Part shown: positions 17,035-64,000 of the stretch, one piece after another | Layout: every line of letters begins with the position of its first letter | Position numbering within the stretch: position 1 is the first letter of the stretch | From: Octopus sinensis | Lineage: Eukaryota | Direction of reading: 5' to 3' | Length of the DNA: 64,000 nucleotides | Assembly (NCBI RefSeq): GCF_006345805.1 | Contig: NC_043001.1 | Span: 133,052,001-133,116,000, forward strand | The notes under the pieces: model-generated | The model's database searches: none | The model's input: only the letters and a program-made list of their open reading frames with translations | Told to the model about the DNA's origin: nothing | Translations under genes and position numbers: made by a program

Positions 17035-17089
17035 ATGAAGATTCAAATTTTTCTACTGTTTATTCAAGCAACAATTCTTCCTTTCAGTG
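17035..17089 (+). CDS. First coding exon (signal peptide) of a large secreted protein gene
   Basis: cagcATG at 17035 gives MKIQIFLLFIQATILPFS-G (basic n-region, hydrophobic h-region, small-residue c-region), followed by consensus donor G|GTGAGT at 17090. Phase 1 matches the acceptor at 57584/57585. Confidence 0.8.
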
Positions 17090-17402
17090 GTGAGTAAAAG
17101 AAATTATAACTCTCTGTCTTTCTCTGTCTCTCTTTCTCGCAGTCTCTCTGTCTCTCTGTCTGTCTCTCTCTCTCTCTCTGTCTCTCTCTGAAAACAGTTC
17201 AGAACTATTTTGTTTTCGTATTTTCAATTAGTTATTACTGTTGCTGTCATTATTATTACTATCATTATTTCATTTATTTAATTTAATTAAAATTTGTGAG
17301 TCACGTAGAAGTTTCTTTCTTTTAACCGAAAACAAGAAAATACACTTTTGAACAGATATATCAAATATTTAAAGTTATCGATTACATTAAGTGACCTGAA
17401 TG

Positions 17403-18140
17403 TGGTGAACTGACAGAATTGTTAGCCTGCTGGACACGATACTAAGTGATATTTCTTCCAGCTGTACGTTTTGAGTTCAAATTCCACCGAGGTCGGCTTT
17501 ACCTTTCTTCCTTTCGGGGTCGATAAATTAAGTACGGGTTGCGTGCTGGGGTCGATCTAATCGACTGGCTCCCTTCTCCAAAATTTCGCGCCTTGTGCCA
17601 AGAGTAGAAAAGAATACTTAGTGACATTTCTTCCAGCTGTACGTTCTGAGTTCAAATTTCACCGAGGTCGGCTTTACCTTTCTTCCTTTCGGGGTCGATA
17701 AATTAAGTACGGGTTGCGTGCTGGGGTCGATCTAATCGACTGGCTCCCTCCTCCAAAATTTCGCGCCTTGTGCCAAGAATAGAAAAGAATACTTAGTGAC
17801 ATTTCTTCCAACTGTACGTTCTGAGTTCAAATTTCACCGAGGTCGGCTTTACCTTTCTTCCTTTCGGGGTCGATAAATTAAGTACGGGTTGCGTGCTGGG
17901 GTCGATCTAATCGACTGGCTCCCTCCTCCAAAATTTCGGGCCTTGTGCCAAGAGTAGAAAAGAATACTTAGTGACATTTCTTCCAGCTGTACATTCTGAG
18001 TTCAAATTCCACCGAGGTCGACTTTACCTTTCATCCTTTCGGGGTCAATAAAATGAGTACTAGTTGAGCATTGGGGTCGATGTAGTCGACTAGCCCTTTC
18101 TCCAAAAATTTCAGATTAAGTACCTTTAGTAGAAAGAATT
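17403..18140 (+). mobile_element. SINE family C tandem array, 4 x 175 bp
   Basis: Unit starts at 17446, 17621, 17796, 17971. Confidence 0.9.
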
Positions 18141-18206
18141 ACATTAAGAGACTTCTCTTAATGTTTTTGTTGTTTGTCTCCAAGTCAGCCTTGATCCGGA
18201 GAAACT

Positions 18207-18630
18207 CTCTCTTTACTCTTTTACTCTTTTACTTGTTTCAGTCATTTGACTGCGGCCATGCTGGAGCACCGCCTTTAGTCGAGCAAATCGACCCCGGGAC
18301 TTATTCTTTGTAAGCCCAGTACTTATTCTATCGGTCTCTTTTGCCGAACCGCTAAGTGACACGGACGTAAACACACCAGCATCGGTTGTCAAGCAATGCT
18401 AGGGGGACAAACACAGACACACAAACACACACACACACATATATATATATATACATACATATATACGACAGGCTTCTTTCAGTTTCCGTCTACCAAATCC
18501 ACTCACAAGGCTTTGGTCGGCCCGGGGCTATAGCAGAAGACACTTTGCCCAAGGTGCCACGCAGTGGGACTGAACCCGGAACCATGTGGTTGGTTAGCAA
18601 GCTACTTACCACACAGCCACTCCTGCGCCT
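18207..18630 (-). mobile_element. SINE family B
   Basis: Full copy. Confidence 0.92.
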
Positions 18631-18760
18631 ATGGATAGATATTTCCTACCATGACCTTATATCTGGCGGGGGAAAATGTTATAAATTGCATTAAGAGAAA
18701 TCTCTAACAATATTGGTTAATCTTGTGAGATTATTTTCTACGTGGTGATGTGAATATTTA

Positions 18761-18926
18761 GGCGTGGGTGTGTGGTTGGGAAACAAGCTTCTCAGCCATG
18801 TGGCCTCGGGTTCAGTCCTAGTGCCCGTCACCTTGGGGGAAGTGTCCTCTACTATAAGCCCCCAGGGCCGGCACAAAGCAGTGTGAGTGGATTTGGTAAA
18901 CGGAATCTGAAAGAAACCAATTGCAT

Positions 18927-18972
<46 letters not shown>

Positions 18973-19200
18973 TGTGGTTGTGTGTGTGTGTGTGCGTGTG
19001 TGTGTGCGTGTGTGTTAGTGTGGTTGTGTGTGTGTATGTGTGCGTGTTAGTGTTGTGTGTGGTGTGTGTGTGTGTGTATGTTTGTGTGTGTGTGTGTGTT
19101 TTTGCCCTCCACGACCGCTTGATAACTGGGTTCAATTTGTTCGACTAAACCCTGCAAGACTGACCCCCCATCATGGCTGCAGTCCAATGATTGGGAAATT
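18761..19200 (+). mobile_element. Old SINE family B copy with expanded (TG)n
   Basis: Diverged head and tail around a TG-rich tract at 18925-19098. Confidence 0.75.
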
Positions 19201-19327
19201 AAAAGATATTTGCCAACTATAGTTACGAACATCGGAGTATTTCTTAGAGGCCTTAATCACTTTAGATTTGTAGTTAAGCTGGTAATTTCTTAAATTCTGT
19301 GCACGATAGTCTGGTTACTGGTATTCG

Positions 19328-19480
19328 TCATCATCATCATCATCATCACCACAACGATCATCGCCACCACCATCGATCACAATCATCATCACCACCATCA
19401 ACGTTGTCATCGCCTTCGTCGTCGTTGTTATCATCATTATCGTCGTCGTCATCATCATCATCATCATCATGATCATCATC
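19328..19480. repeat. Imperfect (CAT)n/(CGT)n trinucleotide repeat
   Basis: Direct reading. Confidence 0.85.
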
Positions 19481-19498
19481 AAAGACTGTAATGGATAT

Positions 19499-19914
19499 AC
19501 TCTTTACTCTTTTACTCTTTTACTTGTTTCAGTCATTTGACTGCGGCCATGCTGGAGCACCGCCTTTAGTCGAGCAAATCGACCCCAGGACTTATTCTTT
19601 GTAAGCCCAGTACTTATTCTATCGGTCTCTTTTGCCGAACCTCTAAGTGACGAGGACGTAAACACACCAGCATCCGTTGTCAAGCAATGCTAGGGGGACA
19701 AACACAGACGCACAAACATATACACACACACATACATATATATATATACATGACAGGCTTATTTCAGTTTCCGTCTACCAAATCCACTCACAAGGCATTG
19801 GTCGGCCCGGTGCTATAGCAGAAGACACTTGCCTAAGATGCCACGCAGTGGGACTGAACCCAGAACCATGTGGTTGGTAGGCAAGCTACTTACCACAAAG
19901 CCACTCCTGCGCCT
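19499..19914 (-). mobile_element. SINE family B
   Basis: Full copy. Confidence 0.92.
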
Positions 19915-20347
19915 ATCTGAACTAAATATCAAATTTTCGTTATAGAAGTTGTTTGCATTCGATTCTAAGGAATTAAGTAACAGTGACAATGAAATGATAA
20001 TTATTGTTGATTAGCATCGGTCAGTTTTATGGAGACAAATCGAAAATATAAGTGTCTCAGAAACACCCACCTGTCCTGTACTGAGAACATAGATGTAAAT
20101 TGTTTAATATTCTGGTTTGATCTAAATTTAATCATCTGAGGAGTTCCACTTCCGGGGTTGTCCCGTATTGGTTGTGGATATACTCACAGACTCAGAATAC
20201 ATCGGAGCTGATATACTATGAGGACGAATTTCATGAGAAAAAATTTGGTTGCTATATCAAGAAACTACGAAGGTGAGGTAATTCTATAGAACAGTTAGCA
20301 GCGTAACGTTCTGATATAATTTGATACGTATCTACTATAACCTATTG

Positions 20348-20712
20348 GTGGAGGCGCAATGGCCCAGTGGTTAGGGCAGCGGACTCGCGGTCATAGGATC
20401 GCGGTTTCGATTCCCAGACCGGGCGTTGTGAGTGTTTATTGAGCGAAAACACCTAAAGCTCCACGAGGCTCCGGCAGGGGATGGTGGTGATCCCTGCTGT
20501 ACTCTTTCACCACAACTTTCTCTCACTCTTATTTCCTGCTTCTGTTGTACCTTGTCACTCTCTGTGTCACGCTGAATATCCCCGAGAACTACGTTAAGGG
20601 TACACGTGTCTGTGGAGTGCTCAGCCACTTACAGGTTAATTTCACGAGCAGGCTGTTCCGTTGATTCGGATCAACCGGAACCCTCGTCGTCGTAACCGAC
20701 GGAGTGCTTCCA
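20348..20712 (+). mobile_element. SINE family A
   Basis: Copy with a ~20-bp internal deletion, TSD ataacctattg. Confidence 0.92.
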
Positions 20713-21099
20713 TCCATAACCTATTGAGGCAATTATGCGTATAAAGAAATTAGATATCTTCATAATAGTTTGGGTATGAAATACAAAATTTGTATCACAC
20801 AAACTATTATATTTAATATATCCAATTTGTTTATTCACATAATTGCCTCTATATCCGCTCAACCTGATCCCTCTTATAGCCATTCTTTACCTTGCGGAAT
20901 CAATTCCCTGTAAAGACATCGGATTCTGAGTTTGAATCTTTTGAACACTACTAATTGTCTCTGGATTTCATCTGAGTAATATATACTATAAATTATTGTG
21001 AATTTAGATTATTTTGTTAATAGAAGTATGGGTACAACTTCGATTTTCCGAAACTTTTCTTCCGAAGTCATTCCTGATCACTAATTTATACATACATAC

Positions 21100-21360
21100 A
21101 TACTACATACATACATACATACATACATACATACATGCATATATTTATATATATGTATGTATGTATGTATCCATTCGCCATGATAGATCGCTAGCCACTA
21201 GACATTCTTTATTTGCTTTCTGTGTTCCTTTTTGTGGAAGAGCGTAGGCTCGAAACGTTAAAGACTTTTTCACTTCCCGAGCGTTATACTAATACATCTG
21301 TTTGTTGTCTACACTAGCTGTCTTCGTGTTTTTTTCTTTTTTTGTGAATTCTCCCTTTAT
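21100..21360 (+). repeat. Penelope-like repeat, inverted partner at 27126-27360
   Basis: Near-identical reverse complement 5.8 kb downstream; bounded by TA/TACA tracts; carries GAAGAGCGTAGGCTCGAAACG. Confidence 0.65.
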
Positions 21361-21470
21361 GTATGTATATATATATATATACATACATACATATATACAC
21401 ACATATATATATATATATTCATATATATAAATGTATGTATGTATATATATATATACATACATACATATAT

Positions 21471-21520
<50 letters not shown>

Positions 21521-21946
21521 TATATATAAATATATATATATATGTATGTATGTATGAATCAGGAGTGGTAACTTTGGTCAGCACACTCTAAATTAAATAA
21601 ACATTAAATTTATTTAAATAATTAAATGAAATACAGGTACAAGTTCATTAACACTGGGTACCAGTAAACAAGTCTGGTGGCCACGATAATTTGTAGTTCC
21701 TGCTCGTAAATTAATGCGGATTATATGAAGTTCTGGACTATCAATATCCGGAAAATGTTTGTTGTACCTATTTCTCGAATTCTTTCCTTTAACGTATTCC
21801 GTAAAACTTATGTGATGATATCAAATAAATAACTGCCATATGATATATCATAGGTTCGTGGGGACTGTAGAGATCGTCTTAGTTGTTTCAGTGTAACTGT
21901 TGATCACGTACTAATGTCTTTCCTTGACAACTATTGTTTAGCTTCA

Positions 21947-22329
21947 GGAGGCGCAATGGCCCAGTGGTTAGGGCAGCGGACTCGCGGTCATAGGATCGCG
22001 GTTTCGATTCCCAGACCGGGCGTTGTGAGTGTTTATTGAGCGAAAACACCTAAAGCTCCACGAGGCTCCGGCAGGGGATGGTGGTGATCCCTGCTGTACT
22101 CTTTCACCACAACTTTCTCTCACTCTTACTTCCTGTTTCTGTTGTACCTGTATTTCGAAGGGCCGGCCTTGTCACTCTCTGTGTCACGCTGAATATCCCC
22201 GAGAACTACGTTAAGGGTACACATGTCTGTGGAGTGCTCAGCCACTTACACGTTAATTTCACGAGCAGGCTGTTCCGTTGATTCGGATCAACCGGAACCC
22301 TCGTCGTCGTAACCGACGGAGTGCTTCCA
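21947..22329 (+). mobile_element. SINE family A
   Basis: Full copy. Confidence 0.92.
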
Positions 22330-22864
22330 CATTGTGGTTTAGCTTCAATTAAGCCCATACATATATCATAATTATTTTGGTTTGTATTTTTGCAACAAAG
22401 TGTTCTCTGGATTACAATATCCGATGTGCCGTTTAAGATGATAAGGAGAGATTTGAGAGAAATTTATTTGGCTGCTAATGCAAGCAGGTCGAGCGACTAC
22501 TCAAGGTCTCCATCGTCCACTTCTTGTAACTTTAGTTTTTTTTCAATATTTCTGTCCACAAGTTGGCGCACTGGCATAATCATTAGCAGCCGATCAAAAT
22601 GCTTAGCGGCATTTCGTCCGTCTTTACGTTCTGAGTTAAAATTTTGCCGAGGTCAACTTTGCCTTTCATCCTTTCCGGGTCAATAAAATAAGTACCATTT
22701 GAGCATTGGGGCAAATATAATGAACTTGCTGGTCTTGTACCAAAATTTGAAACGAATATTTCTGCCAACAGAAATAGTGCATGTGCCCGATCTATTGTTA
22801 TTGTACGGTTTATGTAACTGTTTAATTGTCATTGTACGGATACATGTAACTGTTTTATTGTAAA

Positions 22865-23162
22865 CTAGCAGTATCGCCCGGCGTTGCTCGGGTTTGTAAG
22901 GGAAATAACTATATAAGCAATTTTAGGCAGTTATAGCCAAAAAATAGCAAAAAAATGCATTAAAAAATGGAAAAAAAATTTTGGTAATTTTTTTTTTTAA
23001 TCGTAGACTCATCGTAGACGCGCGCTAATACCCAGAAGGGCTCGATATGAATCACGACTATAAGATACCCGGTTTTGGTTAAACTGCACCGCAAAATGTG
23101 GGAGTAGTTAGGAATCTAAATCGTAGGAGACAGACACACAACTTCTCTTTTATATATAAAGA
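22865..23162 (-). mobile_element. Non-autonomous Helitron H1 (shorter variant)
   Basis: Reverse copy of 149-539 lacking one internal duplicated segment. Confidence 0.8.
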
Positions 23163-23432
23163 TGTAGAGATGTATGTAATGAATCTATTGCGACTTTACA
23201 GCATAAACGAGACTGTTTTATTACAACTGCTTAATTTTTATTTGTCTGTGTTATTGTGATTGTAGAGATGTGTCTGGCTATTTTAGTGTGACTGTACAGT
23301 CTGAACATGGTCGTTTTATTGTAGTTGTATAGATGTTTGTGGATGTTTAAATGTGATTGTACTGATTATAAGATATTACATTTATTGGGTTAAATGCGTA
23401 ATTGTACTGAAATGATTTTGAAATATATAAAT

Positions 23433-23819
23433 GTGGAAGCACTCCGTCGGTTACGACGACGAGGGTTCCTGTTGATCCGAATCAATGGAACAGCCTGCTC
23501 GTGAAATTAGCGTGTAAGTGGCTGAGCACTCCACAGACACGTGTACCCTTAACGTAGTTCTCGGGGATATTCAGCGTGACACAGAGAGTGACAAGGCCGG
23601 TCCTTTTGAAATACAGGTACAACAGAAACAGGAAGTAAGAGTGAGAGAAAGTTGTGGTGAAAGAGTACAGCAGGGATCACCACCATCCCCTGCCGGAGCC
23701 TCGTGGAGCTTTAGGTGTTTTCGCTCAATAAACACTCACAACGCCCGGTCTGGGAATCGAAACCACGATCCTATGACCGCGAGTCCGTTGCCCTAACCAC
23801 TGGGCCATTGCGCCTCCAC
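23433..23819 (-). mobile_element. SINE family A
   Basis: Full reverse copy, TSD aaatatataaatg. Confidence 0.92.
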
Positions 23820-24176
23820 AATATATAAATGAGTGGGATTGTGACTGTATGTTAATGATATAAAAGATTTGAGTTTAGGAAGAATTTTGAGATCAAGTTT
23901 TCAGGATGAGTGGCGTATAGATGATGATGATGTATATTGTTGTGGAACTTGGGACTTTATAGATTAAATCAAATGTCTGTAAAACCTGTTTCTTGAATTT
24001 TTATTTATATTTTACACCATTTAATAAAAAAAAAAACAATCCACACAGCATTACTAATATCTTAAGTTAAAATTGAAACTTATTAGTAACGACTGAGACG
24101 GTTGGATTTCAATGTCTGTATCCTCTATATCTCAATGTCATAACATTATGTTATCGTACGCGTATATATCATAAGT

Positions 24177-24561
24177 GTGGAGGCGCAATGGCCCAGTGGT
24201 TAGGGCAGCGGACTCGCGGTCATAGGATCGCGGTTTCGATTCCCAGACCGGGCGTTGTGAGTGTTTATTGAGCGAAAACACCTAAAGCTCCACGAGGCCC
24301 CCGGCAGGGATGGTGGTGATCCCTGCTGTACTCTTTCACCATAACTTTCTCTCACTCTTACTTCCTGTTTCTGTTGTACCTGTATTTCAAAGGGCCGGCC
24401 TTGTCACTCTCTGTGTCACGCTGAATATCCCCGAGAACTACGTTAAGGGTACACGTGTCTGTGGAGTGCTCAGCCACTTACACGTTAATTTCACGAGCAT
24501 GCTGTTCCGTTGATTCGGATCAACCGGAACCCTCATCGTCGTAACCGACGGAGTGCTTCCA
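24177..24561 (+). mobile_element. SINE family A
   Basis: Full copy, TSD atatcataagt. Confidence 0.92.
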
Positions 24562-24590
24562 TCATATCATAAGTAAATCGTGTCTTTTAA

Positions 24591-24946
24591 AGGCGCAGGC
24601 GTGGCTCTGTGGCAAAAAGTTTGCTTTCTAGCTACATGGTTCCGAGTTCAGTCCCACTCCGAGGCACCTCGAACAAGTGTCTTCTACTATAACCTCGAGC
24701 CAGCCAAAGCCTTGAGAGTGGGTCTGCTAGTCGGAACCTTAAAGAAGCTCGTCGTACATGTAAATGCGAATATATGTATGTGTGTGTTTTTGACCCCCCA
24801 CCATCGCTTGACAACCGGTGTTGGTGTGTTTAAGAGACCGATACAATAACAACCAGGCTTTACAAAAATAATAAGTACTGGGTTCGATTCATTCTACGAA
24901 AATTCTTCAAGGCGGTGCAGTCAAATGACTAAAACAAGTAAAAGAA
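24591..24946 (+). mobile_element. Old SINE family B copy
   Basis: Diverged but colinear with family B. Confidence 0.8.
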
Positions 24947-25186
24947 AAGCTAGTCAGAAAATAAGCTGTTCAAATCCACGGGAATCCTTCAAAAGGAAGT
25001 TGCGCGAGTGAGAAATGAACAGGACATCCATAGGATATCGAACTCTCATAGTTTAGGTTCCAGAATGTCACATGAATATAGATGGGTAAATTTAATGATT
25101 TCGTTTATTCTTCGAAATATCAGAAACTGAATTAAATACGTTTATTGGTCGTCATTTCACAATTAAAGAAGAAAAAAAACTTTGAT

Positions 25187-25350
25187 AGGCGCAGGAGTGG
25201 CTGTGTGGTAAGTAGCTTGCTAACCAACCACATGGTTCTGGGTTCAGTCCCACTGCGTGGCATCTTGGGCAAGTGTCTTCTGCTATAGCCCCGGGCCGAC
25301 CAATGCCTTGTGAGTGGATTTGGTAGACGGAAACTGAAAGAAGCCTGTCG

Positions 25351-25389
<39 letters not shown>

Positions 25390-25610
25390 ATTTGATTGTC
25401 TGTGTTTGTCCCCCTAGCATTGCTTGACAACCGATGCTGGTGTGCTTACGTCCCCGTCACTTAGCGGTTCGGCAAAAGAGACCGATAGAATAAGTGCTGG
25501 GCTTACAAAGAATAAGTCCCGGGGTCGAGTTGCTCGACTAAAGGCGGTGCTCCAGCATGGCCGCAGTCAAAATGACTGAAACAAGTAAAAGAGTAAAAGA
25601 GTAAAGAGTA
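25187..25610 (+). mobile_element. SINE family B
   Basis: Full copy with (TAAAAGAG)n tail. Confidence 0.92.
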
Positions 25611-26156
25611 AATGTGTTACTGAGAACGAGTCCTTGATGTTCTGTAAACACAAGGTAGTTTTTATAGTTTGTAATTGCGTCACCTCAGTTGTACTAATTG
25701 TGGAAAGATCAGCCGCAAAAGTGACATCGAGAGAAAGTGAATGCAAAAAATGTGAAGTCCCGTACAAGAAACAATGAAACATTTGACCGGAATCATTCTC
25801 CTTGGCAACCTCCCCACTCCCTGGAAGAGAAAGACGTCAAAACAGTATGAAGTTAATTGAGAATTGGGCATAAGAAAATATCACATGTTTTTCTTTAGCT
25901 CAATCTGAGCAAAACAGTAACACTAAGTCATTATTTGCTTGAGGGTCACCCATGTCATGTTTTCGTCATGTCTTGGTGATTGCGGTGAACGTCTTGTTGA
26001 TCTGGGTCAAACAAAAATGTTTGATTAGAGTTTCAGCCGTGCCCACCACAGCTTTCCTAAGGGCATGTCTTCATTGTCTTAAAAGACAGTAAATGTTTTA
26101 ATAAAAGACATTTAAAAATTCTATCATTAGATGTAATGCAAATACATCTCTTTCTT

Positions 26157-26361
26157 TCTCTCTCTTTTACTGGTTTCAGTCAATTGACTGCGGCCATTCT
26201 GGAGCACCGCCTTTAATCGAGCAACTCAACCCCGGGACTTATTCATTGTAAGCCTAGTACTTATTCTATCGGTCTCTTTTGCTGAATCGCTAAGTGACGG
26301 GGACATAAACACACCAGCATCGATTTTCAAGCAATGCTAGGGGACAAACACAAACATACAT

Positions 26362-26456
<95 letters not shown>

Positions 26457-26613
26457 TACGACGGGATTCTTTCAGTTTCCATCTACCAAATCCACTCACA
26501 AGGCTTTGGTCGGCCCGAGGCTTTAGTACAAGACACTTGCCCAAGGTACCACGCAGTGGGACTGAACCCGGAACCATGTGGTTCGTAAGCAAGCTACTTA
26601 CCACACAGCCACA
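26157..26613 (-). mobile_element. SINE family B (slightly 5'-truncated)
   Basis: Expanded internal (CA)n(TA)n. Confidence 0.9.
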
Positions 26614-26716
26614 TACATATATATATTTACATACGTACATAATAATTAAAAACAGAAGAGACTACATACATACATCCATACATACGCACACACACGCGCG
26701 CGCACACACACACACT

Positions 26717-26764
<48 letters not shown>

Positions 26765-26978
26765 CACATGCACGCACGCACACACACACACAGTTGCTAC
26801 GATTTCGCATTCTCACTGCAACGGCCGAGGTTCGTTTCGCCGCTTGTGAAATAACTTTTCCACCTGGCCACAGCCTTGGTGCTAAAGCGTATAAAATATA
26901 TATATATATATATGGCCAGGTGGAAAGGTTATATATATATGATATATATATATAAATACATGCATACATATATATATA

Positions 26979-27019
<41 letters not shown>

Positions 27020-27062
27020 TATATACATACATACATTATATATATGAATATATGTATGTATG

Positions 27063-27120
<58 letters not shown>

Positions 27121-27374
27121 TACGTAAAGGGAGAATTCACAAAAAAACACGAAGACAGCTAGTGTAGACAACAAACAGATGTATTAGTATAACGCTCGGG
27201 AAGTGAAAAAGTCTTTAACGTTTCGAGCCTACGCTCTTCCACAAAAAGGAACACAGAAAGAAAATAAAGAATGTCTAGTGGCTAGCGATCTATCATGGCG
27301 AATGGATACATACATACATACATATATATAAATATATGCATGTATGTATGTATGTATGTATGTATGTATGTATG

Positions 27375-27408
<34 letters not shown>

Positions 27409-27709
27409 TGTATGTATGTATAAATAAGTAAATATTCTAACGGTGGTGCTCTATGACCACAGCTTCAAAGCGCGCACACAGGCAGGTGAGTATATTGGTG
27501 CAAAACAAGGTGGGGAGAAAATAGAACTCAAATACCAAAGGTAGAGTAAAATACTATTTTGTTGAATCCGAAAAAAATTCACAAACTCTTATTCAGAGTT
27601 TCAAGTAACCGTTTATCAGACACTTATGATAACACAAATAAATAAAATAATTCTTAAATTGTCAGTGTACATAAGTATTCATGGATACCAATTCAACGAA
27701 TAAGCATTA

Positions 27710-28221
27710 CCGTAAATCCTCGTGTATAATCCGCATTTTTTTCCCAAAATTTAAAGGTCAAAATCCTTAGTGCGTACTATATACGAGGTTAAAAATGAAA
27801 ATTATTTTCTAAGCAATGTCCGAGTCCCTATTTGCTGTCCGGCAATGTTTATTCAGACGTATTTTGTGATGTCGGGCGCAAAAATACCTTAAGCTAAGCC
27901 TGAAAGCAATGAAGTCATAAAAGAATCATCCATAACTTGCAGTAAGCAACATTTATTAAATGTTATTACTATCATTTCTTTATTTTCTGCAAACAAAATG
28001 CACAAAAAAGCTACACGTTTGCATTATGTTATATATACAATAATAACAAAGGACGTTACCGTATACCTTTTTATTAGCCAAAGACGTTATATAGACCTCC
28101 TTGACTCAAGTTAGAGAAGGGGTGCGTATTATACACAAGGTTTAGGTTTTTCAGAGGTACAGCGCCCTAAAAATCCCCTGCATTTTATACTCAAGGGCGG
28201 GCTATACTCAAGAATTTACGG
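27710..28221. mobile_element. pogo/Tc2-like MITE
   Basis: TIRs CCGTAAATCCTCGTGTATA / CCGTAAATTCTTGAGTATA flanked by TA. Confidence 0.8.
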
Positions 28222-28324
28222 TAATTATTATCCAGATAAACAACCAGATGGAGGGATAGATACGTTGATCCCTCCCTCCCTCTATCCATCCATCCATCCA
28301 TCCATCCATCCATATGTACGTACG

Positions 28325-28610
28325 TACAGAATATTGTTATTTGGGACAGACAACTAAAAAGTTTGTACCGTCATAGAGGTCAGCTGTTCTGCTGATGTGA
28401 ATATCTCTTTGAAACTTCCAGTTTCTATATCCAGATTATAAATTTTCATTTATACCGATAATAATCAGTGTACTTGGTTTTGTCAGTAAATGCCTAAGTG
28501 ACAATCTGGATAAGCTAGGGTTTTCAGAAAAAAGAAGAAAAAAACAACTAGCACATTACAAATACTGTGGAACAATAAAGATATACAAGACATTTCTCAA
28601 GTTTAAAATG
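28325..28610 (+). mobile_element. RLE-type LINE 3' relic
   Basis: NIVIWD...VIEVSCSADVN...YPDYKFSFIPIIISVLGFV...GTIKIYKTFLKF, a restriction-like endonuclease C-terminus. Confidence 0.65.
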
Positions 28611-29208
28611 TGACATTGATTTTGTTCCAACGATGGGGCTTTGTATGTTTGTTAGAAACCAGCTCCTTCCTCAAAGAAAGAATTCCAATAATTAAAAGTT
28701 GAAGAGAGCATATAAACATACATATGCATTCATACATACATGCATCATACATACATACATACATACATACATACATACATACATACATACATACATACAT
28801 ACATACATACATACATACATGCATACATACATGCATGCATCCATGCATACATACATACGTACGTACATGCATATACAGAGGGATATTTTTAGATGTATAT
28901 GTGTGCGCGTGTGTGTATTTGTGTATTTATGTATGTATGTATGTATGTATGTATGTATCTATGCATGTATTTACGTATGTATGTTTGTATGTTCTCTTCT
29001 ACTTTTAATTATATAAATTCTTTCTCTGAGGAAGGAGCTGGTTTCTAACAAAGATACAAAGCCCCATCGCTGGAATGTAGATAGCAAAATCAAAATGTAT
29101 CTGTATGTGTGTATACATACATACATACATACATACATACATACATACATACATACACACAGGTTTATATAAAGAAATAGATAGATAGATAGATAGATGT
29201 GTGTGTGA

Positions 29209-29259
<51 letters not shown>

Positions 29260-29582
29260 CAGAGCTACGGCATAATTTTGATCAACCGCGTTGCCCCATT
29301 ACATGAAGACTACTGATCTCACTGGATTCACAAAAAGACAGGATGCAATTCTATCCAGAGCACCAGTCTCGCCAAGAAACATGTACATTAGATTTAGAAG
29401 ACTTCAGTTTCCGGAGCCCCTAAGTTTTGCCATCTTAATAACTATATTTCAGTAGCTAACACTAACCGTAGCTGGACTGCATTTTGAGTATTACAGGTTT
29501 GCCATTGGCCAATTTCTTTCGGGTAGAATGTCAAAATGCTGAATGTCTACATGATCTTTTTATTTATGAGCCTGTTGATAAA

Positions 29583-29996
29583 GCGAGAGTGGCTGTGTGG
29601 TAAGTAGCTTGTTTATCAACCACATGGTTCCGGGTTCAGTCCCACTGCGTGGTACCTTGGGCAAGTGTCTACTACTATAGCCTCGGGCCGACCAAAGCCT
29701 TGTGAGTGGATTTGGTAGACGGAAACTGAAAGAAGCCCGTCGTATATATGTATATATATATATGCGTGTGTGTGTTTGTGTGTCTGTGTTTGTCCCCCTA
29801 GCATTGTTTGACAACCGATGCTGGTGTGTTTATGTCCCCGTTACCTAGCGGTTCGGCAAAAAGAGTCCGATAGAATAAGTACTGGGCTTACAAAAGAATA
29901 AGTCCCGAGGTCGAGTTGCTCGATTAAAGGCGGTGCTCCAGCATGGCCGCAGTCAAATGACTGAAACAAGTAAAAGAGTAAAAGAGTAAAAGAGTA
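29583..29996 (+). mobile_element. SINE family B
   Basis: Near-full copy. Confidence 0.9.
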
Positions 29997-50658: not shown

Positions 50659-50683
50659 TATATATATATATATATATATATAT

Positions 50684-50892: not shown

Positions 50893-50918
50893 TATATATA
50901 TATATATTATATATATAT

Positions 50919-50955
<37 letters not shown>

Positions 50956-51272: not shown

Positions 51273-51656
51273 GTGGAGCGCAATGGCTCAGTGGTTAGGG
51301 CAGCGGACTCGCGGTCAGAGGATCGCGGTTTCGATTCCCAGACCGGGCGTTGTGAGTGTTTATTGAGTGAAAACACCTAAAAGTTCCACGAGGCTCCGGC
51401 AGGGGATGGTGGTGATCCCTGCTGTACTCTTTCACCACAACTTTCTCTCACTCTTACTTCCTGTTTCTGTTGTACCTGTATTTCAAAGGGCCGGCCTTGT
51501 CACTCTCTGTGTCACGCTGAATATCCCCGAGAACTACGTTAAGGTTGTACGTGTCTGTGGAGTGCTCAGCCACTTACACGTTAATTTCACGAGCAGGCTG
51601 TTCCGTTGATCGGATCAACCGGAACCCTCGTCGTCGTAACCGACGGAGTACTTCCA
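51273..51656 (+). mobile_element. SINE family A
   Basis: Full copy. Confidence 0.92.
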
Positions 51657-51939
51657 ATCCAAAATAAGCTTGCTGGCCACTTTATTATTATTATTTTTTC
51701 TAGTTTCTAAATTTTATTTACTCACTATTGTTCGTTTTTGAATGTAGCGGTGGCATCCAAACTAACAAACGCGCACGGTGTAGTGTATATATATTTTTTT
51801 TAATAGTTATATGCAGTAAGTTCAGATGATCATCCTAAGTGCTTGGCACTAAAGGTGAAACCAATTTGATTCTGAGATGACTGTACTTTTCTTTGTGTTT
51901 TTGCAAAGGTAAGGGTTATTTTTTCTTATATTCACTAAA

Positions 51940-52159
51940 CCCTTTCATTACTGCATTTATTCTGAGATGCTCTGAGTTTCTTTCAATTACTTTAAATATA
52001 ACAAAGAATTTAGTAAAATAACTTAGTTATCATTCAACTAGTGTTAGGAACATAAATTGTGACTAACGTTTGGTGGAAGATTTTAATTCAAAACTTATGA
52101 AAACAAGACATTTGTACTCAGAGCCAGAGCCGGTTTCAGCCGGGTTAGTAACGAAAGGG
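51940..52159. mobile_element. piggyBac-type MITE
   Basis: TIR CCCTTTC(A/G)TTACT, flanks TAAA / TTAA. Confidence 0.75.
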
Positions 52160-52527
52160 TTAACTGTGCGTGTTTTGTTTATAGTGAGAAATATGAGGCT
52201 TTGAGAAGTTGATTCTTCTTTCTAACATAGCTGGTTTATAATTTTTATAGCCTAAATTTACATACACACACATACTGTTGTGTCTTGGGAGAGTCATTTT
52301 CCTTTTGTGCTTTATAATTAAGAAATAAGTGGAAATTTTACCGGTGAGTGTGTTAAATCATAAGGCACAAAAAGAAAATGACTCTCCCCAGACACAACAG
52401 AATATGCTTCAACACACGAACTCATATAAAGAATCTTGCAAACCAAATCCAAAACGAAATATATATATATAATTCTGGTGCATCTAAATTAAGTACCATA
52501 TTCATTTGAATCTAAATTGTTGCTGAA

Positions 52528-52598
<71 letters not shown>

Positions 52599-52655
52599 TA
52601 TATTTACCAGAATTTTGTATGGTGTTATCCATAAAAATTTGCGGGGTGATTATAG

Positions 52656-53112
52656 TAAAAAATAAGCAACAAGAATGACTCCGGTAATTTGGTACAATTG
52701 TTTCGCACTACAACATTTTATTAAAAGTTGTAAGTATTACAGCAGATTTAAGATGTTGAGAGCTCTTCAGCCAATTATATAGGTTTTCCAGTAATACAAA
52801 AGCTTTCAAATCAAGTAGTAACATTTTAGAGAAGGTAGATATACAGATAAAGATGTAGAACTAAATTTTAGTGGCTAGACTTCACAACCTAATGTTCTTA
52901 AAATTTAATTCTACATATTTATCTGTATATCTACCTTCTCTAAAATGTTACTACTTGATTTGAAAGCTTTTGTATTACTGGAAAACCTATATAAATGGCT
53001 GAAGAGCTTTCAACATCTTAAATCTGCTGTAATACTTACAACTTTTAATAAAATGTTGTAGTGCGAAACAATTGTACCAAATTACCGGAGTCATTCTTGT
53101 TGCTTATTTTTA
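52656..53112. repeat. Long inverted repeat, ~213-bp arms, ~30-bp spacer
   Basis: Arms 52656-52870 and 52899-53112, few mismatches. Confidence 0.93.
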
Positions 53113-53114
53113 TA

Positions 53115-53172
<58 letters not shown>

Positions 53173-54108
53173 CAAGATATATGTCTCATTTATATCTATA
53201 TATTGACCAACCATAAAGGGCTAATATTGGTAAAATGAGACATGCTTATCTACATGCCCGAAACAGCTGTAAGATGTAATCTATATTTATATTTATATTT
53301 ACTTATATTTATATTCCTTTTATATATATTCTACTTATTATACAACATTACTCTTTTATGTACACTTTTTTATGTACATTCCTTTATGTACACTGTTTTG
53401 TTCTACATTATTATGTTTGACATTGAAGTTTCTTATGTGGTGGTTTAATAAAGTATGTGATTGGGTATTATCTGGTAATTGATATTTGATTTAGATTTAT
53501 TTCTCCATTTTCTTATCTTGTATTAGTAATTTGTGGTAAATCATTTTACTGTTGCCCATATGATACAGTAAATAAATTGATTGCATCGCAATCATTAACA
53601 TTTATGTATTAACTTTGTTGGGTACTTCACTAGCAGTATATTGGATACACGTTATCCCATAGAGGGTTGCATTTACAACCCCTATCTCAATTTGTATATA
53701 TATATATATATATAATCAGTATATGCCTTAACTTATTAAACAAAGTTCAACAACTTCATTCATATTTATGAAGTGAATGAGATTGGATGTTAAAACGGAT
53801 TTTAGTTTTTATTTTCACATTCCTATACCATTGTTTCTTACAAATGGACCGAGAAACTCATAAATAGAACATCGTAATGGTCAAATTTGTATTACTCAGT
53901 AGGTAATAGTTAAAGGAAAATAAAAAGACGTTTAAAATATACATAGCTTTTTATTTTAGTTATTATATTAAGGGCTTTATATATTCATTATTCCAGTCAC
54001 ACTTATTTGTAGAGCAAATTATGAAGGAAATACATTGGAAATCTAAGGAAAAAATTCCAATTAAAGGACGAACATGCATTCATCCGATAAAATATATATA
54101 ATATATAA

Positions 54109-54148
<40 letters not shown>

Positions 54149-54389
54149 CGGGAAGCTTTATGAAAATAAACAAAAGACGAAGGCAGGTGGAATACAAAGA
54201 AACAATTGTATTAGTATGGCGCTCAGGAATATAAATAAAACAAGTCTTTTACGTTTCGAGCCTACGCTCTTCAACAGAAAGATACACAGAACAGAAACAC
54301 GGAAAGAAACAAGGAGAGAAAAAAAATGCTTGCAGAAGCTAGCGAATCAACATGGCGATATATATATATGTATATATATATGTATATAC

Positions 54390-54473
<84 letters not shown>

Positions 54474-54475
54474 AC

Positions 54476-54507
<32 letters not shown>

Positions 54508-54575
54508 GTATGTATATATATATATGTATATATATATACATACATACATACATACACATATAATACATACATACA

Positions 54576-54611
<36 letters not shown>

Positions 54612-55006
54612 TATACCTATGTACTTACACGCATACACACACACACACACACACACACGAGCACACACATACACACAGTTGTCTCTAGATTTACACGGTT
54701 TCACTTTTGCTCGTTTGACTTGATTTTTCTTTTATTTTCTCGTTTTTTTTGTTTTTTTTTAACAATTTTATGTTTACTGAAACACAACTCCATCGTTTCC
54801 GTTTAGTTTTTTTTAATTTTACTTTTATTTCACTCCCCCCCCCCCCGATAACGACGTTAAACTCAAACTTACAATTAAATTTTTGAAATATTTTGTTGGA
54901 TCTTTCCATTGAATAATAAAGTTTCAAATGTCAAGGAATTCTATTTCACTAGAAATGAAAATTAATTAATTAATTTCAAAATGAAAACTCGATAGAAACT
55001 GAAACA

Positions 55007-55406
55007 ATCTTTATATATAAAAGTGAGGTTGTGTGCTGTCTGTCTCCTACGATTTAGATTCCTAACTACTCCCACATTTTGCGGTGCAGTTTAACCAAAA
55101 CCGGGTATCTTATAGTCGTGATTCATGTCGAGCCCTTCTGGGTATTAGCGCGCGTCTACGATGAGTCTACGATTTAAAAAATAATTTACCATCATTTTTT
55201 CCATTTTAATGCATTTTTTCGATATTATATAAGGGAAGTAACTCTCTAAAAATGTCTACGATGAGTCAACGATTTAAAAAAAAATTACCATCATTTTTTT
55301 TCCATTTTTAATGCATTTTTTTGCTATTTTTTGGCTATAACTCTCTAAAAATGCTTATATATTTATTTCCCTTACAAACCCGAGCAACGCCGGGCGATAC
55401 TGCTAG
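55007..55406 (+). mobile_element. Non-autonomous Helitron H1
   Basis: TC...hairpin...CTAG. Confidence 0.82.
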
Positions 55407-55547
55407 TTTAATATAAATGAAAGAATTATCAGATCAATTAAAATAAGCATAGAAAAAAAATGAGAACCGGTATAATAGCTGGATCTTCTATAACTCTAAA
55501 ACACACACGACGCATACGTGGCAACATTATTGAAATAATGGAGTAAG

Positions 55548-56000
55548 ATGGCGAGCCGACAGAATCGTTATCACGTCGAACAATATGTTTCAATGCATTT
55601 ATTCGGGCTTCACGGTCTGAGTTCGAATTCTGCTGAGTTCGATTTTGCCTTTCATCGTTTCGAAGTCGATAAATAAATACCTATTTCTTTATTACCCACA
55701 AGGGGCTAAACACAGAGGGGACAAACAAGGACAGACATAGGTATTAAGTCGATTACATCGACCCCTGTGCGTAACTGGTACTTTATTTATCGACCCCGAG
55801 AGGATGAAAGGCAAAGTCGACCCCGGCGGAATTTGAAGTCAGAACGTAACGACAGACGAAATACCGCTAAGCATTTCGTCCGGCGCGCTAACGCTTCTGC
55901 CAGCTCGCCGCCTTTAAATAAATACCAGTTGAGCACTGGGGTCGCCATAATCGAATAGCCCCATTTCCCAAATTTCAGGCCTTGTATCTATCTTATAAAG
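55548..56000. mobile_element. Old + strand SINE C interrupted by a young - strand SINE C (55681-55913)
   Basis: TSD taaataaatacc. Confidence 0.85.
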
Positions 56001-56071
56001 AATTATGTTGAATAAAAAATAGTACCCAATATCACAACAGTACTCGTAACACGTATGCTTGTATGTAGATA

Positions 56072-56640
56072 CAGGAGGTCCCAAAAGTCATTGATGATAC
56101 TTTGATAGGTTTCGGCCATTATTGGCCCAGGCCATGTCTAACTTAATAGCACCACCTGGATGAGTTTTAATTTTTAATAACTTCTTTAACTGTACAAATA
56201 AATGCAGGAAAATTTGATACAATATAAAGGACATAATAAAAATTAATGTGCACAAGTCAAATTTTGCAACACCACTACATCACATATGAAAAATGACATC
56301 GCTTAAATGGCAGCCATTTTCAGCTTCGCTCGCCCGTGCTCTTTCCAAAATTTGCACCATAACACTCTCAAGAGTTTCATACTCCGCTTTCCTGATTTCT
56401 CTATTGATGTTTTTCTTTAGTTGCACCAGGGTCCCCGGTTTGTTGACGTAAACCCTCTCTTTCAAGTATCACCACGAAAAAGTCCGGGTTAGTCCAAGTC
56501 TGAGGAACGTGAAAGCCAGTTGATATTGCCGTAGCGGGGGATTATTCTCTCTCCAAAGCACTGCCGTTGCAACTGCATTGTTTCTCTTGCGGTATGAGCA
56601 GTTGCCCCATCTTGCTGGAACCATGTATGAGGTCTACTTT
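56072..56640 (-). mobile_element. Tc1/mariner-superfamily transposase relic (WFQQDGATAH type)
   Basis: Reverse translation WFQQDGATAHTARET...NWLSRSSDL...LKERVYVNKP; TA+CAGG terminus at 56070. Confidence 0.8.
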
Positions 56641-56899
56641 GAATGGCCTTCACGTTCCCCGGTCAGTTGTTTCAATCTTGCATTCGGTCACAATCTTTCA
56701 CACAATCCTTAAAATGCAATTTTGGCTTATGCTCTGATCCCATACGAATACCAGTTCGCCATAAAGGATTCGTTTTGGAATTCTACTGTCATCTAGTCGC
56801 ATACGATGGCCTATCTAACGGAGTCTATGTTTACGGAAGCGAACTCCAATGCTTAGTACTTCAGAATCAGGCATATACATACATACATACATACATTGT

Positions 56900-57284
56900 T
56901 GGAAGCACTCCGTCGGTTACGACGATGAGGGTTCCGGTTGATCCGATCAACGGAACAGCCTGCACGTGAAATTAACGTGTAAGTGGCTGAGCACTCCACA
57001 GACACGTGTACCCTTAACGTAGTTCTCGGGGATATTCAGCGTGACACAGAGAGTGACAAGGCCGGCCCCTTGAAATACAGGTACAACAGAAACAGGAAGT
57101 AAGAGTGAGAGAAAGTTGTGGTGAAAGAGTACAGCAGGGATCACCACCATCCCCTGCCGGAGCCTCGTGGAACTTTTAGGTGTTTTCACTCAATAAACAC
57201 TCACAACGCCCGGTCTGGGAATCGAAACCGCGATCCTATGACCGCGAGTCCGCTGCTCTAACCACTGGGCCATTGCGCCTCCAC
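56900..57284 (-). mobile_element. SINE family A
   Basis: Full reverse copy 300 bp upstream of the giant exon. Confidence 0.92.
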
Positions 57285-57285
57285 T

Positions 57286-57520
57286 ATACATACGTACATA
57301 CATACATACATACATACATTTATACATACATACATACATACATACATACATACATACATACATACATACACACTCGCACACAGACACATACATACATGCA
57401 TACATACATACACATACATACACACATACATACATACATACATACATACATACATACATACATACATACATACATACATACATACATACATACATACATA
57501 CATACATACATACATACATG
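57286..57520. repeat. (TACA)n microsatellite next to the splice acceptor
   Basis: Direct reading. Confidence 0.95.
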
Positions 57521-57584
57521 CAAAATCGTAATATAAACCATCGTATTTTTTTATGACTAAAATCTTGCTTCGATTGATTTGCAG

Positions 57585-60500: not shown

Positions 60501-63500
60501 GTTACAAAAGCAATGGGCGTAAAATAAAAAAGAAATTTAGGTACAAAAACATGGGCCACCCTTTCAAAAACGTTCGTCGCACTGGGAATAGTAACATTTC
60601 TATGAGGAAAAGATTTAGGAAATTATACCCAAATATTCACTTCCAAGCTGATACTGAACTGTTTGGTAACCGTGTTAGAGAAGTCGTAGAGATTCCTGAC
60701 ATTGATTGGACATTAAAGGGATCAACTTTGGAAGGTGATAGCATTAATTTATTGAAGAAATCAAAATCAACTGAAAATAGAACCATAACCTCCGGTCATT
60801 TACCTCAAGATCATTCAGAAAGATTACCTCAAAATAATAATGTAATCCGGGGTATACATTCTAAACATCATGCCATCAACACAGATACATCAGATTCCCA
60901 GAAAACCGATTCCCAGTCCATTGAAGATGACAACAGATACCGGAAAATATCCTTGGAGTATCCAAAAGATGCTGACGAGTACAGACTTGATCACTTACAT
61001 GGAATTCCGAACGTGTTCACTGTGGTGTCAAGTACGAAAGATGATGATGACGATGATTCTGCTGAATATAGTCAGTCGGATCATAACCTAGTGATCAACA
61101 CGATTAAGTATAAATCGCCCAATATAGATATGCATCACATTGATTCTTTAAATCCTGTCTATTTAAATACCTTAAAAGATATTCGAAACTTTGTAGATAC
61201 ACACAGCGAAGATAAAGATGATTTCAATGAAGGAGTAGATGAAGAAAGAGAAGAAGTGCAAGAAAATATGGAATACTCAAATAAACAGCCAGCATTTCAT
61301 CCACTTTTGGTGAGAGGCAGAGAAGATCCATATAAGACCGTATCTAATATTCAGTTAAATAATGAAAAGATGTCCCCTGTTTACAGGGAAATAAGCGGCT
61401 CACAAGAAGAATTTCCCGATATTGAGAGAGATCATGTTATTGGCGATTATCATTATCCAAAATTCGATCAATTGAAAACAAAGGTACAACTTCCCACTGA
61501 ACTATACCAAGATAAACTATACGGAATCGATTCAGATGACGAAAATGAAGAATTGCCGCTGATGTACAGAGATATAATGTACAAGAAGCGCCTATCCAAA
61601 CACGACAATAATAGAATGCCGCATGATAATGACAATACATTTTCTACATCGGAAAGAGTAAACACAATGAACACAAATAAGCAAAATAGTCTGAACAATT
61701 TCTATGTGCTGGGCAATAAACCAAGTAAATTAAACCATACAGTTGGTGATTTCCACAACAATAGTAGAATAAAAGTCAACCACCCACTAATGTCATACAA
61801 TTCAATAAGTGCTCTCTATGGACAATCTCCATTAAACCCTGACGAAACATATGATTCAGTCGAAGATAGCAACTTGGACTCCACTAGTATGGCGGATGAA
61901 TTAAACTATCGCAATAAAAAACGGAAGTTGATTTCTTCAAGTTCACACAGTTTGCATAATAAAATACTTGTTACAGGCGCTGAAACGCCTGGATTATTAG
62001 GTCCAACGGAAAGTGAACGGAAATCAAACGAGAATCGTCTGAAAAATACTTTGAAAAAGAAAACTTCCAGCCTTTTTAAGAGTCATCTACGTAACCGTGA
62101 TAAGCATTCAGACGATTCTTCCATCCGCTCTATAGAAGGGGTTCGATCTGACCAAGAATTTTATAGAACTTCGTCTGGCAGAAGAAATCAGATACTTGGG
62201 CAAAGCCAAGGGCGAGAAAATCGGGAAATCTATTTGCCCAGAGATTTTCATAGCTCCGAAACGATATGGAGAAACGGAAAAAGCCCTTTACGTGGGCTAG
62301 AGGCTCAAGATATACCTCGTCAGTATTGGCGAATTTATCAACTTTTAAAGAAAGGAAATTTACCAGAAAAATACAGATCATTATATTATCACTTTAAAGA
62401 CGAAATGGATAAAATTGCCAATAAATCTTCGCAGGGTAATATCTATAAAACCAATACTCATAATAACCTTTCAGATCCAAATGAAACCTTGAATAAATTT
62501 GATATAAAATTAACCAATAGATCTGGTAGTTCTCCATTGTGGAACAACAAAAATGAAGTAGATATTCTTAAGAGGAATGAGTATGAGAAGAAAACAGATG
62601 AGGAAAATACCGATATTGGTCTAGCAATGCAAAAGGGCCAAAAGAAATTGAGTGTAGTTGATGTTCATGATGACACACAAGTTGCCTTAGAAGGAGTTTA
62701 TCTGAAAGGTGGTTTAGACTCTAATAATAAGGATTTGGGGACACCAGAATTTGGTGGTCGGCCATTGGAAGATGAAAATATTTCTGGAGATTTTGGAAAC
62801 AATACATTTGAGGAAAATAATAAAAACTGGAAGGATACAAGTTTCGATATCGGCATTTCAAATCCAAAGTGGAACGATACATTAGCTTATGAAGAATCCA
62901 GGATGAAGGAGAAAACTGCATTTCTGAATAAGGACTACAATATGAATAGCATGGATTACCAAAAACTGCACAAAAACGTTTCTGATTATGAAATAGCAAA
63001 AGGCTATAAGAGCGAAAACAGTTATCCATTAGTTGATGAACAATTGCGTAAAACACAATATAAAAATTACTACGATGAAAATAGTCCTGGACTCTTTGAG
63101 AATGGAGTTCATTTTGGGGTTCATGGCAAAGCCGATAAAGGCCAGCAGAGACACGATATAAATACAAATCCTCGAGGATCAAACAACAAAGTTCTCGGTC
63201 CTAATGATCAACAGAGTATACAGTATCCCACAGAAAACGGAAGTCCACTCACTGATATTATTGAGAATCATCAATATGAAAACGTATATAATTATCATGG
63301 GAGTATATATGACCCATATGATTACCTAGGGGAAGTGGATATCAGCCAGCTGGACCCAGTTGAAAAGGCTTTTCAAATACCTTACAACAGTGTTCCAGAG
63401 AACACACTCACTAAATTTGATAATCAAGGAAATCCTTTAGAACCTTCAGATTTAACAAACACAAATTTACAAAAAAATAGGTTAATGAAAGACAATTCAA

Positions 63501-64000
63501 ATTTATTAACCCAGTATGGTGATGAAATGAATTTAAACGGTCGGGTAAGGCCAGAAAAACAGACCCCTAATGTCGATAAAGATACAGAGAAGTTCAAGAG
63601 CATGAGTAGAAACATAAACATAGATAAACCAGGAATCTTTGGTAGTGATTTTCAAAAGAAATCTGATCAAGTTGTATTAGATAAATATTTATCACATGAT
63701 GTATTTAAAAAAGTATACAAAAGTCAAGGGGAAGGTAAACGCTTACACGAAAGCCATGAGGTAAGAAAACACTCGCAAGACAGCAATGGGGAAAGACAAC
63801 TCTTGCAAGACAGCAATGGGGAAAGACAACTCTTGCAAGACAGCAATGGGGAAGAAAATATTTGCCAGACAGCCATGGGGAAAGAAAACACTTGCAAGAT
63901 AGCAATGGGGAAAGAAAATACGCACACGACAATCATAGAGAAAGAAAGCAAGGACAAGGTAGCCATGAAGAGAAAAAATATTCACATGGTAATTTTGGGG
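57585..64000 (+). CDS. Giant coding exon (>6.4 kb, >2100 codons, runs off the window) of an uncharacterised low-complexity N/K/S/D/E-rich protein
   Basis: Acceptor tttgcag|GC at 57584/5 with an in-frame TGA just upstream (57575). Codons starting at 57587 (GDGKNWNKSAFNKDS...) read without a stop to 64000. No repeats or microsatellites in 6.4 kb, unlike the flanks. Confidence 0.93.
63719..64000 (+). repeat. Coding 30-nt tandem repeat (DSNGERQLLQ-like decapeptide, >=9 units)
   Basis: Units at 63719, 63749, 63779, 63809, 63839 (29 nt), 63868, 63898, 63928, 63958. Confidence 0.9.

Follow-up and report, generated by a model that had tools for sequence, protein, structure and literature searches.

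A 64,000-nucleotide stretch of the Octopus sinensis genome (contig NC_043001.1, positions 133,052,001 to 133,116,000 of the forward strand; hereafter the window) holds the first part of a gene on the + strand that is real and spliced, and that likely comprises 13 exons encoding one product of about 5,500 residues. Exon 1 encodes a predicted signal peptide and exon 2 is a cysteine-free giant of 13.8 kb under purifying selection, while the exons beyond it, which carry the gene about 55 kb past the window end, encode folded domains in a cysteine-rich cassette of about 900 residues (C8-TIL-EGF-VWD-C8-TIL-EGF-VWA). By its predicted domain order the gene is a divergent member of an expanded octopus family of zonadhesin/FCGBP-like VWD-C8-TIL-EGF-VWA genes. 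We favor, at a probability of roughly 0.55, the reading that this single-copy gene supplies a gel or matrix scaffold to a secretion of gland cells such as mucus, adhesive or egg cement, with secretion predicted and the tissue presumed. An earlier note made from the window alone had described a two-exon, domain-less orphan with an exon of more than 6.4 kb; it had seen the first 40% of the gene, which is neither two-exon nor a domain-less orphan because exon 2 splices on to further exons, at least two of which are joined in contigs and which likely number eleven in all and encode C8, TIL, EGF, VWD and VWA domains.

Region and Transcript Data

We examined 257 kb, comprising the window (G000:C5:133,052,001-133,116,000) and 193 kb downstream; coordinates beyond 64,000 continue the window numbering (G000:C5 position minus 133,052,000). 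Evidence for splicing comes from assembled contigs of runs whose type, RNA or DNA-like, is in each case a guess. Four runs align over 57400-64000 (X1, X2, X5 and X15, with X1 and X2 from one study), and three runs guessed to be RNA (X1, X2 and X6, from two studies) are informative for the joins of exons 2, 3 and 4, which we read from a table of aligned contig pieces with consecutive record positions. The RNA guess fits because these contigs have a spliced structure and because depth is zero in two intron bins that DNA-like X15 covers.

A Signal Exon Joined Across 40 kb

The coding part of exon 1 (17035..17089, + strand) consists of an ATG at 17035 with an in-frame stop codon upstream, 18 codons plus one base in all including a predicted signal peptide, and is followed after 17089 by a GTGAGT donor in phase 1; the X1 contig carries about 410 further bases of 5′ sequence ahead of it. 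A repeat-rich GT-AG intron of 40.5 kb on the same strand (17090..57584) leads to exon 2 at 57585, which is preceded by the acceptor tttgcag and by an in-frame TGA at 57575-57577. These sites lie where the earlier note had placed them, and the junction it proposed, 17089->57585, is real: contigs of two of the four runs (X1 and X2) come loose from the genome at 57584 and continue there with 30 letters identical to the end of exon 1, DNA-like X15 runs on into the intron, and for X5 no piece is listed across the junction. The predicted protein has a hydrophobic N-terminus, where its highest 19-residue hydropathy (1.43) is located, and no transmembrane-like stretch appears in a 19-residue hydropathy scan of the full predicted chain. 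The product is therefore predicted to be secreted, as had been supposed. Among eight ORFs (open reading frames) of intron 1 and its flank scanned for nested genes, none exceeded the Pfam cut-off.

A Giant Exon Broken in the Assembly

Exon 2 (57585..71,415, + strand, with its first 6.4 kb inside the window, to 64000) is delimited by contigs and measures 13,831 bases in the assembly or 13,833 bases (4,611 codons) with two missing bases restored. An open frame of 2,141 codons occupies 57578-64000 and is by far the longest of 19 window ORFs of at least 120 residues, the second having 215; beyond the window it stops at 64,192, and overlapping open frames of 1,582 and 1,026 codons come next. Compared with the assembly, 4/4 runs (DNA-like X15 included) have one extra base at 63,847-63,850, and X1, X2 and X15 have one extra base at 68,396, in a row that does not list X6. 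Because runs add a base at each site and the O. bimaculoides protein A0A0L8GLG0 is in frame at both, the two breaks are most likely single-base deletions of the assembly. The extra base at 63,847-63,850 also means that the open frame, which the earlier note had followed to the window end, holds until about 63,850 and that the last ~50 residues of its translation are off-frame.

Two breaks in one exon of an assembly are what a decaying gene, or one regulated by frameshifting, would present. Such real breaks are refuted for the individuals behind the runs by the bases added in 4/4 runs at the first site and in 3/4 listed at the second and by the intact O. bimaculoides frame; the assembled animal may carry a private allele, and overall we give this explanation next to no credence. 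Programmed frameshifting was likewise rejected on the bases added at both breaks, as was a donor-like site at 68,397, through which contigs run. The first break falls in a 30-bp (10-residue) tandem repeat (63763..63918, + strand, 5.2 copies) that is six units longer in O. bimaculoides. Separately, at 62,927 all four runs have three more bases than the assembly, in frame, reflecting either an assembly error or a private allele.

Exons 3 and 4 and the Predicted Exons 5 to 13

Single contigs in 3/3 RNA-guess runs join the end of exon 2 at 71,415 to exon 3 (74,958-75,170, 71 codons) and exon 3 to exon 4 (75,285-75,533), both on the + strand; the middle junction, where an AG is ambiguous, was initially placed two bases leftward. 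Exon 4 encodes a C8 domain (PF08742, E 2.5e-7). Scanning the sequence downstream of exon 4 revealed exons 5 to 13, all on the + strand and all joined by predicted junctions. These encode a TIL domain (exon 5, 89,720-89,922), a TILa-like segment (exon 6, 91,230-91,380), an EGF domain (exon 7, 93,399-93,500), the first and second parts of a VWD domain (exon 8, 95,057-95,319, with GLSR in place of GDPH, and exon 9, 99,266-99,546), a second C8 (exon 10, 101,217-101,482), a second TIL (exon 11, 105,987-106,183), a TILa-like segment plus EGF (exon 12, 109,582-109,789), and a VWA domain with a metal ion-dependent adhesion site (MIDAS) motif and the stop codon (exon 13, 118,437-118,999). The label "TILa-like" for exons 6 and 12 is our own and follows a sequence pattern. 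The 13 exons and 12 GT-AG introns yield one frame of 5,527 residues without an internal stop when an unknown base is put at each break.

The X1, X2 and X6 contigs continue 2,859-2,928 bases beyond exon 4. This length fits the model because coding sequence after exon 4 amounts to 2,234 bases and the implied 3′ untranslated region of 625-694 bases would end next to a TA repeat, a place at which contig assembly would be expected to stop; the fit is consistent with the later junctions and is no proof of them. The O. bimaculoides model A0A0L8GLG0 is an exon 2 orthologue, in frame throughout, that differs in covering nothing but the giant exon: the signal exon and the first 99 residues are missing from it, and it starts at an internal Met and ends in sequence aligning as intron in place of exons 3-13. 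A read-through isoform of that kind was not seen, as RNA-guess contigs splice at the exon 2 donor. Such a model, together with the predicted status of junctions 4-13, might suggest two genes, one with the giant exon that stops a short way past exon 4 and a separate one downstream that holds the VWD-VWA exons. Set against this are the contigs' run past exon 4, phases that all fit one frame, a C8-TIL pair that straddles the first predicted junction, and the internal-Met start and intron-aligned end of A0A0L8GLG0. We consider two genes highly improbable, and the gene model as a whole very unlikely to be wrong.

Composition and Conservation of the Giant Tail

Exon 2 is under purifying selection. 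It is 92.4% identical over 4,374 residues to A0A0L8GLG0 (uncharacterized in UniRef, 4,519 residues), and the identity is even along its length (87-95% per 250 residues). The two differ by 332 replacements and 0 stops; neutral evolution would have left 17-23 stops, in a comparison conditioned on the model being an ORF. Among listed differences private to X5 or X6, 20 are replacement and 27 silent (n = 47), compared with a neutral ratio of 2.5-3.6 (P ≤ 3e-5, omega 0.21-0.29); this count leaves out 15 non-private rows, one repeat row, and intronic rows.

A0A0L8GLG0 is also the sole database relative found, as the one match among 473 candidates longer than 3,744 and up to 5,000 residues. None of 6,070 candidates of 1,176-3,744 residues matched the in-window protein in a search that is weak for distant relatives, and an atlas search with the first 1,000 residues gave no usable match, which speaks for neither absence nor novelty. 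In the animal's own genome the first 500 residues of exon 2 matched only themselves. Outside Octopus, these weak searches yielded nothing related to the giant exon, which agrees with the lineage-specific protein that the earlier note had envisaged. A0A0L8GLG0 appears in no full text searched, and judged by titles and the opening lines of abstracts we found no paper on the gene, subscription papers being outside this scope.

The tail encoded by exon 2 is predicted to be disordered: FoldIndex is below zero in 92% of its windows versus 13% in the cassette. It contains 0 cysteines versus ~97 expected from base composition, and its 2,139 in-window residues have no Pfam match, so that the reported lack of a folded domain holds inside the window and fails for the gene, which continues to C8, TIL, EGF, VWD and VWA. 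Self-BLAST finds no internal repeat beyond one 10-residue tandem array. The tail has 59 N-x-S/T sequons, and its S+T content reaches at most 33% per 100 residues, so that 0 windows qualify as proline-, threonine- and serine-rich (PTS; S+T ≥40%, P >5%). Its charge alternates: the 200-residue stretches 20-220 and 820-1020 each carry about +30 and the stretches 620-820 and 2420-2620 about -28. Dibasic pairs number 13-14 per 400 residues across the first 800 residues.

A layout in which a signal exon precedes a single huge disordered one, in a predicted secreted protein, recalls the SIBLING proteins and granins, an analogy that the earlier note had drawn. SIBLING proteins and granins are defined by an S-x-E-rich acidic chain, and none is known to carry a folded cysteine-rich cassette. 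Here a C8 exon is spliced on, S-x-E motifs are at chance level (41 versus 36 expected), net charge is mixed rather than strongly acidic, and the C-terminal part is cysteine-rich, so the analogy finds no support. One could still imagine a granin-like proprotein whose tail acts mainly in condensing granules or is cleaved into peptides at dibasic sites, the cassette being released as a separate small FCGBP-like unit. The dibasic pairs near the start, the charge blocks, and the absence of cysteine are in keeping with this, as is a somewhat better conserved N-terminal half (10:19 replacement to silent, versus 10:8 in the later sampled stretch, among listed differences). Yet the whole chain contains no R-x-K/R-R site, there are no repeated peptide units, and conservation does not concentrate in peptide islands, and we regard a granin-like proprotein as improbable.

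The Folded C-Terminal Cassette

Pfam searches were run on single exons. Matches over cut-off are C8 (exons 4 and 10), TIL (exon 5), VWD (exon 9), EGF (exon 12), and VWA (exon 13, PF00092, E 1e-35), and those under cut-off are TIL of exon 11 (just under), EGF of exon 7, and VWD of exon 8. A VWD-C8-TIL assembly is thus identified by Pfam on exons 8-11, across predicted junctions. In PDB sequence searches the VWD half matches FCGBP (best), VWF and mucins, and the VWA exon matches collagen VI alpha3 and mussel PTMP1. The VWA domain keeps D-x-S-x-S (MIDAS), and the VWD domain starts with GLSR and lacks the GDPH motif. None of 1,570 candidates of 313-2,000 residues matched the VWA exon in a search weak for distant relatives. 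Pfam scans of ~4,145/4,611 exon 2 residues and of exons 3-13 found no NIDO, ZP, AbfB, collagen, MAM or FCGBP_N domain. The intron that splits the VWD domain contains, at ~96,069-97,520, what we take from its motifs to be a mariner-like transposase remnant.

Exon 3 is possibly half of a decayed F5/8-type-C domain. Compared with the second half of that domain it scores 9.1 bits against a 3-sequence octopus profile, a score reached by 1/1000 shuffles, and an atlas lead to F5/8 type C at 0.86 points to a family assigned on only 18% of members. Conversely, exon 3 has no Pfam match, a PDB sequence search gave one chance match, AlphaFold on exon 3 alone was uninformative (predicted local distance difference test score 49), and the end of exon 2, tried as the missing first half of the F-type lectin fold, does not match. 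A search for exon 3 paralogues in the animal's own genome returned the self match only.

An Expanded Octopus Family and Skin Mucus

Searches of the genome returned at least 118 VWA and at least 44 C8 matches, several clustered with VWD exons. Expanded VWD-C8-TIL genes with VWA, EGF or PAN in varied order lie at C3:23.68-24.13, C3:85.20-85.26, C3:139.21-139.26 and C15:33.18-33.20 Mb and on C8755 and C9304. The C15 paralogue reads PAN-PAN-EGF-VWD-C8-TIL-TILa/EGF-VWA-stop across predicted junctions, its EGF-like exon having no Pfam match. It shares the EGF-VWD-C8-TIL-TILa/EGF-VWA cassette in identical exon order and has two PAN domains where the present gene has a 4,600-residue tail. Paralogues are ~25-45% identical per domain to the present gene, which differs from the family in an extra C8-TIL unit without a preceding VWD. 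At three paralogue loci (200 kb each) no long non-transposon ORF was found on the gene strand, as judged from ORF starts. The paralogue VWD start exons seen (n = 6) carry GDPH in 5/6 cases and GDRH in 1/6, versus GLSR here; with the GDRH copy, at C3:23.857 Mb, the motif is altered a second time. Proteins cleave themselves at GDPH (PMC10880436). By comparison of these sequences, the present gene is set apart within the family by its giant conserved non-PTS exon, for which no paralogue was found, and by loss of GDPH.

Relatives of the gene are found in mucus. The O. vulgaris skin-mucus proteome contains peptides labelled zonadhesin-like or IgGFc-binding-like (PMC10138644), and peptides so labelled map to the paralogue loci at C3:85.2 Mb and C3:23.7 Mb. 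Skin mucus is also described as containing VWFD- and VWFA-domain proteins named without identifiers (PMC11431876), and in the O. maya oviducal gland a zonadhesin-annotated transcript, which may or may not be the present gene, is up-regulated (PMC8976471).

The same gene might instead contribute to an acellular matrix inside the body (that of cartilage or dermis, of the statocyst cupula or statolith membrane, or of the lens or sucker cuticle), in the manner of tectorin and otogelin or of collagen VI and matrilin. This would suit the VWA domain, whose best matches are collagen VI alpha3 and the mussel byssal protein PTMP1, and the loss of GDPH, which with the miss of its motifs in the listed rows of the skin-mucus table separates the gene from the mucus paralogues; tectorin and otogelin are themselves VWD-C8-TIL proteins (PMC4948705). 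Alpha-tectorin and otogelin, however, carry NIDO and ZP, or AbfB, none of which was found in the scans described above, nor was a collagen domain; the closest relatives in the genome belong to the family found in mucus, and titles and abstract starts yielded no paper tying such a protein to the statocyst. We judge an internal matrix role possible but unlikely.

Comparison with Known Systems and Proposed Function

Mucin genes usually have a giant exon at their center. The gel-forming mucins (MUC2/5AC/5B/19), like the hemolectin-type 3+2 VWD proteins, share with the octopus protein a signal peptide, a very long unfolded region and VWD-C8-TIL units. They differ in that the present protein has one C-terminal VWD, and no PTS composition, tandem-repeat core or cystine knot was found in it, whereas gel-forming mucins have three N-terminal VWD-C8-TIL units and a PTS typically of 40% S+T (PMC4948705). 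Vertebrate FCGBP, which is secreted and provides the best PDB match of the VWD half, is likewise built of VWD-C8-TIL units, and has an FCGBP_N domain and 13 VWD units, 11 with GDPH (PMC4948705; PMC10880436); the present protein has a single VWD that lacks GDPH, together with a VWA and a giant tail, and the scans found no FCGBP_N in it. True zonadhesin (ZAN) has MAM domains and a transmembrane segment, neither of which was found here. By analogy, the nearest design precedent would be Mlig-ap1, a flatworm cohesion protein of 5,407 residues with low-complexity charged arms and a core of lectin, VWD-C8-TIL and EGF domains (PMC6410801). It and sea-star Sfp1 resemble the present protein in size, long charged low-complexity arms, and a VWD-C8-TIL plus EGF core, a likeness of design for which we claim no homology. 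The Mlig-ap1 arms are K/R-rich with an isoelectric point above 14, whereas the present tail is of mixed charge and non-repetitive.

We propose that the chain would enter the secretory pathway via the signal exon, after which the ~900-residue cassette would fold with disulfides and anchor it. The VWD assembly would do so by associating with copies of itself or with partners, and the VWA domain, through its MIDAS, would bind collagen-like or other partners in the matrix in a metal-dependent way. For its part the 4,600-residue tail, in which blocks of basic residues come early and acidic stretches later, would stay unfolded as a hydrated, charge-patterned and N-glycosylated spacer that fills space or cross-links by charge. 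With no GDPH there would be no self-cleavage at the VWD, so that tail and anchor should stay joined unless proteases cut at dibasic sites.

Several observations weigh against a secreted gel or matrix scaffold. The junctions beyond exon 4 are predicted. The tail is non-PTS and there is one VWD rather than the three of gel-forming mucins, so gel formation is proposed by analogy only. Another 15 rows list differences that are private to neither X5 nor X6, and 12 of these are replacement and 3 silent, which raises the pooled omega to ~0.4; these rows may be polymorphism or assembly error. Finally, six short motifs of the protein were absent (0/6) from the 3,654 rows listed of the skin-mucus table (PMC10138644), a weak test, though one that gives the protein no place in skin mucus.

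A more specific proposal is an octopus-specific gel protein in which the 13.8-kb exon, non-repetitive, cysteine-free and with no paralogue detected, was added in one piece to an ancient mucus VWD-C8-TIL-VWA cassette that also lost self-cleavage. The resulting anchored polyampholyte of ~600 kDa would form hydrogel or cement via patterned charge and N-glycans rather than an O-glycosylated PTS bottle-brush, its disordered residues being conserved for partner binding. This proposal is speculative, and we hold it doubtful in its full form.

Surrounding DNA

Window positions 1-57,500 otherwise appear to be mostly microsatellites and interspersed repeats, and 47% of the 257-kb region has a similar copy within the region. 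The next + strand gene downstream comprises a 567-codon disordered ORF at 158,440-160,140 and a later ORF at 183,837-184,139 with a weak JHY match (E 0.025, below cut-off), and is possibly a JHY homologue. A single 294-codon ORF at 211,974-212,855 encodes a CUX1/CASP N-terminal domain (E 3e-43), a useful synteny marker. Elsewhere in the genome, large tandem arrays of single-exon VWA domains occupy C23:2.61-3.15 Mb, C4:69.3-72.5 Mb and C4:89.3-89.6 Mb; some members have identical scores, suggesting recent duplication.

Implications

The analysis recovers a gene of ~5,500 residues broken by two assembly errors. Given those errors and a database model that has neither signal nor folded domains, sequence-based proteomics and annotation would likely misread it. 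An apparent orphan is thereby placed with secreted scaffold proteins of mucus and adhesives, a family already known, through a cassette that is itself ordinary. The family appears to swap N-terminal modules, with PAN domains in one paralogue and a giant disordered exon here. If the tail does form gels without PTS sequence, the protein would be a candidate for a natural wet material, and one in which selection on disordered regions of great length could be studied.

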